Below are positions 24,953-26,861 of a stretch of 64,000 nucleotides of DNA, in pieces. This DNA is from a virus. Lineage: Duplodnaviria > Caudoviricetes. Location: the IMG/VR virus record IMGVR_UViG_2841517901_000005, positions 2,063-66,062 of that record; one strand, written 5' to 3'. The stretch's first letter is position 1; each line of letters begins with the position of its first letter. The notes beneath the pieces are model-generated. The model did not search any database. It saw only the letters and a list, made by a program, of their open reading frames with translations, and had not been told where the DNA came from. The translations under genes were made by a program, and so were the position numbers.

Positions 24953-25504
24953 ATGCGGCGCATCTACGGATACGGGCTCGGCGCCTTCGCGCTGGCGGCG
25001 GCCTCCGCTGCGGCCGCCCAGACCTACCAGACCTGGGTCGGCCAAGCGGGCGAGCAGCTGCCGGGTTTCGTCATCACCTGCCCGACCGGTTCGGCGCGCC
25101 AGGCGGCGCCCTGTGGTACCCCCGGCAACCCGTTGCAGGTGGCGAGCGCTCCGAGCGCCAGCCCCGACAACGGGCTCGCCGTCTCCCGGATCATGACCAC
25201 CGCCAGCGCTGCGGCGATGACGATCAAGCCGGCGCCGGGTCGGCTCTACGCCTTCAACCTGTGCAACAACGCCAGCACCAGCCGCTACGTGCGGTTCTAC
25301 AACGCCGCCGCGGCCACCACCGGCACCACCCCGGTCTACGCCGGACCGATCACGCTGGCCGCAGGCGGATGCCAGCAGTTCACCACCGCGGTCGGGCTCG
25401 GCTTCTCGGCCGGCATCGCCCTGTCGGTGACAGCGGCCAACGGCGACGGTGACGCGACACCCGGCATCGCTGGGGACGTCTCGGGCTTCCTGGGGTTCCT
25501 GTGA
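24953..25504 (+). CDS. Secreted beta-rich protein with signal peptide
   Basis: [23 protein letters not shown]; 4 Cys in the mature part. Confidence 0.75.
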
Positions 25505-25881
25505 TGCGTGCCCTGCTCGCCTTGCTGGCGCTCTGCGGTTCTGCCGCAGCGGCCGACATGACGCCGTTCTACCGGATGCAGTCGGATCCGTACCTGCTGC
25601 CCTCCACGACGGCGCCAGCGCAGTACCCGATTCCGCAGCCGGTCGGCGCCACCTCGTACCGGATCGTCAACCCCTGTCAGGTCGACATCCGGTTGAAGAC
25701 GGTCGCCACCACCTCGTCGCAGGTCACCGCGAGCACCGGCACTCGCATCCTTGCCCGCACCGTCGAAGTGCTGGCATCGAGCCCGTCTCTCAGCAACCCG
25801 CGCATCGTGTCGATCATGACGATGGCGGATCCGGGCGCCGCGGGCTGCACGGTCGAGTTCACCTACGGGTCGGGGCAGTGA
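25504..25881 (+). CDS. Secreted small protein with signal peptide
   Basis: [18 protein letters not shown]; 2 Cys in the mature part. Confidence 0.75.
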
Positions 25882-26861
25882 GGGCGCACGTCGCGCTCGC
25901 CTTGGCGCTCGCGGCGGTACCGCTTGCCGCGCAGGCTCGCGGGATCGGTGCGCCGGGCGTCGGGTCCCCGGGGCCGCAGGGTGATCCGGGACCGCCAGGA
26001 GCCCAGGGCGGCGTAGGACCGAAGGGGGATCAGGGTGCAGCAGGTCCGGCCGGATCCCAAGGACCACCCGGTCCTCAGGGAGTTCGTGGAAGCGATGGTC
26101 CGACAGGTCCAACAGGAGCGACGGGCCCGGCCGGCGTATCGGGGTCTGCTGGACCTGCCGGAGCCCAAGGCGCTACCGGGCCTGGGGGCGCCACTGGTGC
26201 CGCAGGACCTGCCGGGGTCGCTGGTCCGCGTGGCGATACCGGGCCCGCAGGTGCAGCGGGCACTGCCGGTCCGCAGGGAGTAGCGGGGGCGAAGGGTGAC
26301 CAAGGATCTCCAGGCCCGACCGGCGCTCAAGGTCCGAAGGGCGATGCAGGCCCTGCTGGTGCAACTGGCCCGGCTGGACCCACCGGCTCCGCAGGCCCAC
26401 AGGGCAGCCCTGGACCTGCAGGCGCTGCTGGACCCGCAGGAGCCCAGGGCGCCCAAGGCATCCCGGGCGCCAAAGGCGACACCGGCGCCGCGGGTGCGAC
26501 CGGCGCGCAAGGCCTGACCGGTCCAGCCGGGGCCGCCGGGCCGCAGGGCGCCACAGGTCCGGCCGGACCCACGGGCGCGACCGGGCCGAAGGCCTCCACC
26601 TTCGTCTGCACCACCACCGTCGCCGAGACGATGCTGGCGGCGGTCTCGTCGGGCATCCGCGAGCGGGCCGGTGTCACCTGCGCCGGCGTGCTCGCAACCG
26701 ACATCCTCGAGATCTACCCGACGACCCTCCCGAGCGGCTACGCGGTCCACCACGCGATCCCGACCGCTGCGAACACGTTCCGGGCGACGATCTCGCAGCC
26801 CGGCATCGCGATCGGCGCGTCCTACTCCATCCCGGTCGCGGTCTATGCCGTGAACCGGTGA
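25878..26861 (+). CDS. Collagen-like protein with signal peptide
   Basis: GTG start [21 protein letters not shown]; 70 uninterrupted Gly-X-Y triplets (25962-26591); C-terminal beta domain with 2 Cys. Confidence 0.88.

Follow-up and report, generated by a model that had tools for sequence, protein, structure and literature searches.

A cassette of three genes (g1, g2 and g3) lodged between the portal and MuF genes of a Methylobacterium prophage probably encodes an exported fibre module. We studied it in a stretch of 64,000 nucleotides, hereafter the window, that covers positions 2,063 to 66,062 of the IMG/VR virus record IMGVR_UViG_2841517901_000005. At the core of our interpretation, and well supported by sequence comparisons, stands a conserved phage fibre module that appears to have acquired Sec leaders, cysteine pairs and long collagen stalks in Methylobacterium prophages. 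The more far-reaching statement, namely that this module is exported, folded in the periplasm and then docked onto virions, is one that we hold tentatively, with a probability of roughly 0.4 for the statement as a whole. The genes and gene parts on which the argument turns are the following.

23459..24946, plus strand: portal gene, the 5' flank of the cassette (PF06381, 2.2e-82; phrog_146, 2.7e-102).
24953..25504, plus strand: g1, 183 amino acids, with a leader at about residues 1-21, Cys 43 and 54 in an N-module, and Cys 104 and 140 in a C-domain.
25501..25881, plus strand: g2, 126 amino acids, with a leader at about residues 1-18/19, an eight-strand jelly-roll and a cysteine pair (Cys 59 and 116).
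25878..26861, plus strand: g3, 327 amino acids, the collagen-stalked fibre gene.
25878..25937, plus strand: leader of g3, residues 1-20, with a cleavage site predicted heuristically after A-Q-A.
25962..26591, plus strand: collagen stalk of g3, 70 Gly-X-Y triplets, residues 29-238.
26592..26861, plus strand: C-terminal knob of g3 (C-terminal domain, CTD), 89 amino acids plus the stop codon, a modelled six-strand beta sandwich with Cys 244 and 268.
26941..27753, plus strand: MuF-type head morphogenesis gene, the 3' flank of the cassette (PF04233, 9.1e-12; phrog_324, 1e-82).

The original prediction had described three coupled genes between portal and MuF, and both the coordinates and the GTGA/TGATG overlaps present at the g1/g2 and g2/g3 junctions agree with this description (an ATG at 25504 offers an alternative start for g2, giving 125 amino acids). 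Six nucleotides separate the portal stop codon from the start of g1, and 79 lie between the stop codon of g3 and the start of the MuF gene. The cassette also matches the late genes in G+C content and codon style, as had been proposed: the G+C content of third codon positions (GC3) is 0.90 for g1, 0.88 for g2 and 0.94 for the CTD part of g3, compared with 0.87-0.96 for the neighbouring genes, while the value for the whole of g3 (0.70) is pulled down by its collagen part. A scan of positions 20000-32000 with the sigma-70 consensus, which does not cover alphaproteobacterial promoter types, returned no promoter-like site, in agreement with the earlier observation that no separate promoter is seen. 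Terminator-like sites were likewise missing from the plus strand of this interval, all four that were found lying elsewhere than on the plus strand. Since the cassette is tightly embedded among late structural genes, we infer that it is co-expressed with them late in infection.

The third gene encodes the putative fibre proper. Its collagen region was confirmed as an uninterrupted run of Gly-X-Y triplets (PF01391, 6e-32, 109.7 bits against a cut-off of 27.2), which, if folded into a triple helix with a rise of about 0.29 nm for each of its 210 residues, would measure about 60 nm. The C-terminal beta domain that had been proposed was recovered in a structural model, in which the 89 residues form six beta strands with a predicted local distance difference test score (pLDDT) of 89. 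The best fold matches of this model are C-terminal domains of trimeric tailspikes and tips of pyocin fibres; they are weak (Z <= 6.0), and the top one is the C-terminus of the HK620 tailspike (Z 6.0). When the CTD alignment was used as a profile against all PDB sequences, nothing was found at E values up to 1, and the ESM Atlas returned sub-threshold leads only. The fold matches are no more than compatible with a fibre tip, and we assign neither the CTD nor g2 to a fold family.

Homology of the knob to fibre proteins of the isolated phages OP2 and CP2, as detected by hhalign, bears out the proposal that the cassette encodes a fibre system. The CTD aligned with the collagen protein of CP2 over 93 columns (hhalign 98.6; tblastn 1e-7) and with ORF38 of OP2 over 85 columns (hhalign 97.3; tblastn 6e-3); the corresponding hhalign values for the viral contigs L038 and L042 are 98.4 and 97.0, respectively. 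The CP2 protein, which has 374 amino acids, shares with g3 not only the knob but also a collagen stalk (PF01391, 2.9e-32), and OP2 belongs to the Kantovirinae, the same subfamily as phage phiXaf18, whose portal and MuF proteins resemble those of the window. Unlike the genes of the window, those of OP2 and CP2 encode neither a leader nor the cysteine pair, and no g2-type gene adjoins them: ORF38, a 'putative tail fiber protein' by annotation, is a tail-module gene with a non-collagen stalk, and the CP2 gene is a solitary one, with the lysis genes on the other strand. ORF37 and ORF39 of OP2 and gp16 of the Octadecabacter virus were considered as g2-type partners and rejected, as they are not g2-type proteins. 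In the CP2 record (L035, NC_020205.1; positions 4118-5273), the annotated ORF4 is an antisense frame of the collagen gene, the real gene apparently being the opposite-strand open reading frame (ORF) of 374 amino acids at 4149-5273.

The claim that all three genes carry classical Sec signals held up in a simple heuristic for n-, h- and c-regions. We applied this test to 76 GC3-supported ORFs of the window, trying every candidate start; g3 lies outside this set owing to the codon bias of its collagen part. Only six of the 76 ORFs passed (g1, g2, a convincing case at 58080-58670 beside the endolysin gene, and three marginal internal starts). The leaders of g1, g2 and g3 each possess a basic n-region, an uncharged hydrophobic core of at least 10 residues and a small-x-small site. 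A Tat signal was rejected in view of the shortness and strong hydrophobicity of the leaders and the lack of a conserved twin arginine, and we also rejected a lipoprotein reading of Cys12, an additional cysteine within the g2 leader, as position -1 is Leu and the cysteine is absent from homologues. Leaders were present in the fibre genes of the window and of 12 further loci from the genus that are described below (13 of 13), in all of 13 additional database proteins of the collagen/CTD type, and in 10 of the 11 g2-type genes of the loci, L027 being the exception. In the fibre leaders, the Met is usually followed by Arg or Lys, then by an uncharged hydrophobic run and a small-x-small site just ahead of the collagen. 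These features, not the sequence itself, are shared by 26 fibre homologues and by over 40 homologues of the g2 type, and in the Methylobacterium subfamily the leaders can thus be described as conserved at the level of a predicted feature. The original prediction had named leaderless homologues as an observation that would speak against it; such homologues were not encountered among the fibres of this subfamily, whereas more distant homologues do lack leaders.

It might be argued that the hydrophobic N-termini are not working export signals and serve, for example, in oligomerisation or transient membrane association, so that the proteins stay in the cytoplasm and assemble on the particle as their leaderless relatives would. 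Leaderless homologues whose gene position suggests virion parts do exist, and the L027 locus pairs a leaderless base protein with a leader-bearing fibre. We nevertheless regard this explanation as very unlikely: the n-, h- and c-region features are recognizable in all three leaders and retained among their many homologues, few other ORFs of the window have N-termini of this kind, and cysteine pairs accompany the leaders in three protein families.

The even numbers of cysteines that had been claimed for the mature proteins (4, 2 and 2 for g1, g2 and g3) were found at the positions listed above. Within the 88 rows of the g2 family, 41 combine a leader with both conserved cysteines and 34 have neither; 11 possess the leader only, several of these being fragments or misaligned, and two possess the cysteines only. 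Removal of 13 fragments or chimeras left 75 rows, and a looser count on this set revealed at least two jelly-roll cysteines in each of the 46 leader-bearing rows. The cysteine pair of the knob is absent from the leaderless CTD proteins of CP2, OP2, L038 and L042, and L038 and L039 encode leaderless g1-like proteins that contain no cysteine at all. Both states meet in L027, where the fibre possesses a leader and the cysteine pair while the adjacent g2-type protein has neither a leader nor the two conserved cysteines. In the g1, g2 and CTD families alike, the cysteine pairs seem to accompany the leaders, as export to an oxidising compartment would predict; this is not proof of export.

No match to Pfam or PHROG was obtained for g1 or g2, and a tblastn search of 50,697 phage records with g1, g2 and the g2-like protein of L038 also remained without a match. 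When g1 was searched for in the genus and its relatives, a single doubtful match (8.7e-4) with stops inside was recovered. Many g2-type proteins are longer (160-197 amino acids) and contain an additional N-module with a second cysteine pair; with one of these long forms, that of L028, g1 aligned by BLASTP (7e-13) over the leader, the N-module and the first strands. Judged from this similarity, g1 is a divergent paralogue of the g2-type proteins, and both would be related jelly-roll proteins. The C-domain of g1 belongs to a separate family that is found leaderless upstream of g2-type genes in viral contigs (8e-7 with the g1-like protein of L038) and also forms the C-terminus of larger proteins of Caulobacter phage KSC and Octadecabacter virus DB2. 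An AlphaFold model of g2 (pLDDT 87.4) displays the eight-strand jelly-roll, whose fold matches are non-specific (top Z 8.4 for SID1-family ectodomains, followed by viral capsid jelly-rolls). For g2, the ESM Atlas returned nothing but unnamed viral clusters (0.93), and profile searches of PDB sequences with the alignments A1 and A2 gave nothing significant. An exhaustive profile search defined a g2 family of 70 representatives; homologues of g2 were present in six of 61 related genomes, and the leaderless g2-family profile A3 matched the g2 of the window at 7e-16.

While the near members of the g2 family carry leaders, the distant ones are proteins of 108-125 amino acids that start at the first conserved strand. 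Each of the three viral contigs recovered from IMG/VR (L038, L039 and L042) contains a leaderless trio with overlapping starts. The gene order is the one seen in the window (a small upstream protein, a g2-type jelly-roll protein and a fibre gene), but leaders are missing, cysteines are mostly absent, and the stalks are much shorter or lacking altogether. The fibre gene of L038 encodes a bare CTD, that of L042 a short collagen region with the CTD, and that of L039 a collagen stalk with a different knob; the two stalks comprise about 5 and 20-plus triplets. An adaptor-like gene and a gene with the PHROG annotation 'head closure Hc3' enclose the trio in L038 and L042, and in L039 it lies ahead of a tailspike gene. 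The leaderless relatives had no Pfam or PHROG match. Single-protein scans, run with P0091 and P0080 on viral contigs and with P0055 on genome contigs, yielded no relative that would have added a leaderless locus, and when 401 genomes of the class were searched with the leaderless profile, only the g2 of the window itself was matched.

Comparisons between loci suggest how the parts fit together. L038 and L039 are 65% identical in their g1-like and 77% identical in their g2-like proteins, and their third genes differ past the N-terminus; L033 and L030 are 67% identical in the g2-like protein and 76% identical in the N-part of the fibre, and have unrelated knobs. The g2-type proteins thus appear to track the N-terminus of the fibre, not the knob, and we infer that g2 (and g1) form a base that would hold the fibre N-terminus, with stalk and knob exchangeable. 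As a weak observation, several predicted mature N-termini of leader-bearing fibres resemble the very start of leaderless fibres in a short motif, R-x-[IV]-G. As read from these relationships, the leaderless state is the ancestral one and export is derived.

In 83 related phage records identified by blastn with the portal-to-MuF region, the portal and MuF matches are joined by a span that is shorter by about 2 kb, and in phages phiXaf18 and PQ43W the MuF gene directly follows the portal gene. Since portal and MuF are adjacent in related phages, the cassette represents an insertion of about 1.9 kb. At another position, the MuF-protease junction, phiXaf18 and PQ43W (L043, L044) possess additional genes of their own: one of the two phages encodes an HNH endonuclease there, and the other has six ORFs on the reverse strand. 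CTD homologues occur in 12 of 146 genomes of the genus, and the 12 corresponding loci were inspected. In 10 of them (L023-L026, L028-L031, L033 and L034), a leader-bearing g2-type gene precedes the collagen gene; L027 has the pair of g2-type and collagen genes with the g2-type gene leaderless, and in L032 a fibre gene with the CTD stands without any g2-type match. The head and tail proteins of the window found no match in the 12 loci except for one terS. According to PHROG, the cassettes are neighboured by genes for a head-tail adaptor, Ad1 and Hc1 connectors and a tail terminator, and in L027 by genes for the portal and a head decoration protein. The stop codon of the g2-type gene is overlapped by the start of the fibre gene in 10 of 11 loci, the fibre stop codon is overlapped by the next structural gene in eight loci, and the stalks vary between 33 and 92 triplets. 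From this arrangement, the cassette appears woven into the head/neck clusters of several unrelated prophage types and is not a separate transcription unit. The original prediction of an undescribed fibre system inside the head operon is borne out in that the trio is a conserved unit; as far as homology searches tell, the module is neither unique to this phage nor confined to head operons.

Genes inserted into a prophage may be morons in the classical sense, lysogenic-conversion cassettes expressed from their own promoter in the lysogen, and the cassette might then build a collagen-like surface or periplasmic structure for the host. Its insertion between genes that are adjacent in relatives, the predicted export of its products and its patchy distribution (12 of 146 genomes) would fit such a role. 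We consider this unlikely, however, since the composition is not distinct from that of the neighbours (GC3 0.88-0.94 versus 0.87-0.96) and only 6 nucleotides are left between portal and g1. The scan for promoters, limited to the sigma-70 type, and that for plus-strand terminators both came up empty. In the eight other loci in which the fibre stop codon is overlapped downstream, a terminator would cut off essential genes, and the leaderless versions are embedded among the connector genes of viral contigs.

Several of the loci contain further features beside the cassette. In L027, a protein of 151 amino acids encoded upstream was considered as a relative of g1 and found not to be detectably g1-like. 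The same locus encodes, directly after the portal gene (7560-8690), an Asp-Gly-x-rich protein of 376 amino acids, a second repeat-stalk protein beside the cassette, that matches collagen-like tail-fibre PHROGs and also, in their C-terminal parts, long 'portal protein' PHROGs. In L028 and L033, the collagen gene is followed by cargo that begins with a phrog_240 'head protein' of 131 amino acids (10888-11283 in L028 and 11404-11799 in L033, both in oriented coordinates), and normal structural genes resume after the cargo. Several metagenomic ORFs (P0023, P0050 and P0044) fuse a leader-bearing g2-type protein, cut to its N-terminal two thirds, in frame to the C-terminal half of the CTD or to unrelated sequence; they share a common junction and possess no collagen stalk. 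ORFs of this type have arisen recurrently from the cassette by deletion or recombination.

We propose that the module consists of two small jelly-roll base proteins (g1 and g2) and a trimeric fibre (g3), the latter with a short N-terminal anchor peptide, a collagen stalk of about 60 nm and a distal knob of the tail-fibre type. The cassette would be made together with the late head genes. In the Methylobacterium lineage, each component would have gained a cleavable Sec leader and paired cysteines, so that the parts would be exported, folded and disulfide-bonded in the periplasm while the capsid assembles in the cytoplasm. The g2 protein would contact the N-terminus of g3, and g3 would trimerise. 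Holins form lesions of a size sufficient for virions, and lysis without spanins leaves a sphere bounded by the outer membrane. The finished fibre complex would meet virions once such lesions have opened the inner membrane, while the outer membrane is still intact or just giving way, and would become an accessory fibre of the neck or head that aids adsorption. In this most specific form, in which a tailed phage builds a Dsb-bonded virion part in the periplasm from an ancestral cytoplasmic module to which leaders were added, and attaches it between holin permeabilisation and outer-membrane rupture, the proposal seems doubtful to us; it would amount to a two-compartment pathway that is not known to have been described for Caudoviricetes.

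Docking onto virions is the weakest step that we infer. We favour it because the anchor-stalk-knob design and the base protein are retained, because the genes remain beside portal or connector genes as they do in the leaderless forms, and because the calculated length of the stalk exceeds the width of the periplasm, which is about 25 nm. It is further favoured because the cassette contains no outer-membrane anchor or secretion gene, and because fibres and decoration proteins, which attach to finished particles in vitro, can bind to completed virions, as exemplified by gp12 of phage SPP1.

A set of observations weighs against virion docking or against parts of the scheme leading up to it. We know of no tailed-phage virion protein that matures in the periplasm. 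The cassette resides in at least four unrelated types of structural module, which fits a virion-independent function better than a specific docking partner, and the mature fibre is almost devoid of an N-terminal domain, so that attachment would depend on a short peptide and on g1/g2. The fold matches of g2 and the CTD lie below the noise level of the search tool itself. With regard to the cysteines, nine of the 29 leaderless rows in the 75-row set also have at least two of them in the jelly-roll core, and the fibre of L032 possesses a leader and no cysteine pair. The leader state changes only three times on the tree of these 75 rows, with one supported independent pair; a sign test is therefore powerless, and we make no statistical claim on the association of leaders with cysteines.

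The same data can be read to mean that the fibre complex is exported and never joins the virion, acting instead, at a late stage of infection or once lysis has taken place, on the host envelope or outside it. By coating receptors on the dying cell and its debris, for instance, it could protect the progeny from loss by re-adsorption; it could also exclude rival phages, or work as an adhesin that is either released or attached to cells. Such an envelope or free-fibre role is doubtful as well, yet nearly as likely as virion docking. It accounts equally for the leaders and cysteine pairs. The cassette moves among unrelated prophages within one host genus, so that what stays constant is the host and not the virion; compared with the closest phages it is inserted DNA, and its knob derives from a receptor-binding-type fibre tip. 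Phage proteins directed to the envelope have precedents in Llp of T5 and in Lom and Bor of lambda. Arguing in the other direction, the cassette possesses no outer-membrane anchor, lipobox, beta-barrel or dedicated secretion gene, and stalks of 33-92 triplets, with calculated lengths of about 28-79 nm, exceed the periplasm and argue for an extracellular rod. The knob occurs in a single copy (one match in its own genome, G000) and does not mimic the tail-fibre tips of the prophage itself. Furthermore, the retained base protein and N-terminal anchor motif suggest that the ancestral assembly has been kept, and in L027 the base protein is leaderless.

Among known systems, the collagen-like capsid binder gp12 of SPP1 is comparable with g3 in being a phage-encoded collagen-like trimer from among head genes that binds finished capsids (PMC7602432). 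It differs from g3 in that it is very short, has no knob, leader or partner proteins and belongs to a phage with a Gram-positive host; the two are likened by description only. As stated in the title of an article in the Journal of Biological Chemistry from 2014, gp12 reportedly binds in a reversible manner and is said to be amenable to addition from outside. A place of the fibre beside head decoration or head fibre proteins of the SPP1 gp12 or phi29 gp8.5 type would be suggested by the position of the gene, which lies among head and neck genes. The lambda morons Lom and Bor resemble the cassette as exported proteins encoded in or beside the late structural operons of temperate phages; they differ from it by their own promoters, their expression in the lysogen and their nature as an outer-membrane barrel and a lipoprotein, none of which was found in the cassette. 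Lcl of Legionella and other bacterial collagen-like adhesins combine a signal peptide, collagen repeats and a C-terminal domain as g3 does, but are chromosomally encoded, secreted by the type II pathway and not phage modules. In the available text of the phiCbK genome paper, passages on the periplasm concern lysis genes, and a signal peptide is mentioned only in the title of a reference (PMC3556154). Our literature searches brought up no account of the three-gene module, of the g2-type or CTD families, or of a Sec-exported virion fibre of a tailed phage.

The prophage is of the myovirus type and resides in a 7.7-Mb genome of Methylobacterium, a non-pathogenic host that is amenable to genetics. 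Its terminase small and large subunit genes are located at 21002-23384 of the window, and the further genes include those for a DUF2213 protease/scaffold, a cement protein of the E217/Pam3/XM1 type and the major capsid protein, as well as tail genes (sheath, tape measure, a baseplate hub of the E217 gp41 type and fibres) and an amidase endolysin. In the region 58110-58921, after the endolysin gene (57213-57992), a protein of 186 amino acids with a strong signal- or lipoprotein-like N-terminus and no family match is encoded, followed by an ORF of 83 amino acids; the two are probably a spanin or lysis-accessory pair. The segment 39000-43233 has a low G+C content (0.56-0.59 versus about 0.68) and contains an ORF without a PHROG match (40110-41078) and, placed between the genes for the tape measure and the baseplate, an Ant-type anti-repressor gene (42358-43233); it looks like a separate accessory insertion within the tail module. 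The C-terminal residues 583-758 of the tape measure protein (37297-39696) match endolysin-type PHROGs, which suggests that a cell-wall-degrading domain is fused to it.

Morphogenesis of tailed phages is taken to be wholly cytoplasmic, and there is a realistic chance that virion assembly in two compartments would be new in kind. The cassette is a recognizable fibre module with export signals on every subunit, and its leaderless ancestors are at hand for comparison. It also defines two uncharacterised families of phage proteins, the g2-type jelly-roll and the CTD knob, and offers bacterial collagen stalks whose length varies naturally between 0 and 92 triplets while the scaffold stays the same. 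Should the fibres never reach virions, a virion part would have been turned into an envelope-directed or released factor that is encoded in a late operon. If they do reach virions, phage assembly would span two compartments and would make use of the oxidative folding machinery of the host.

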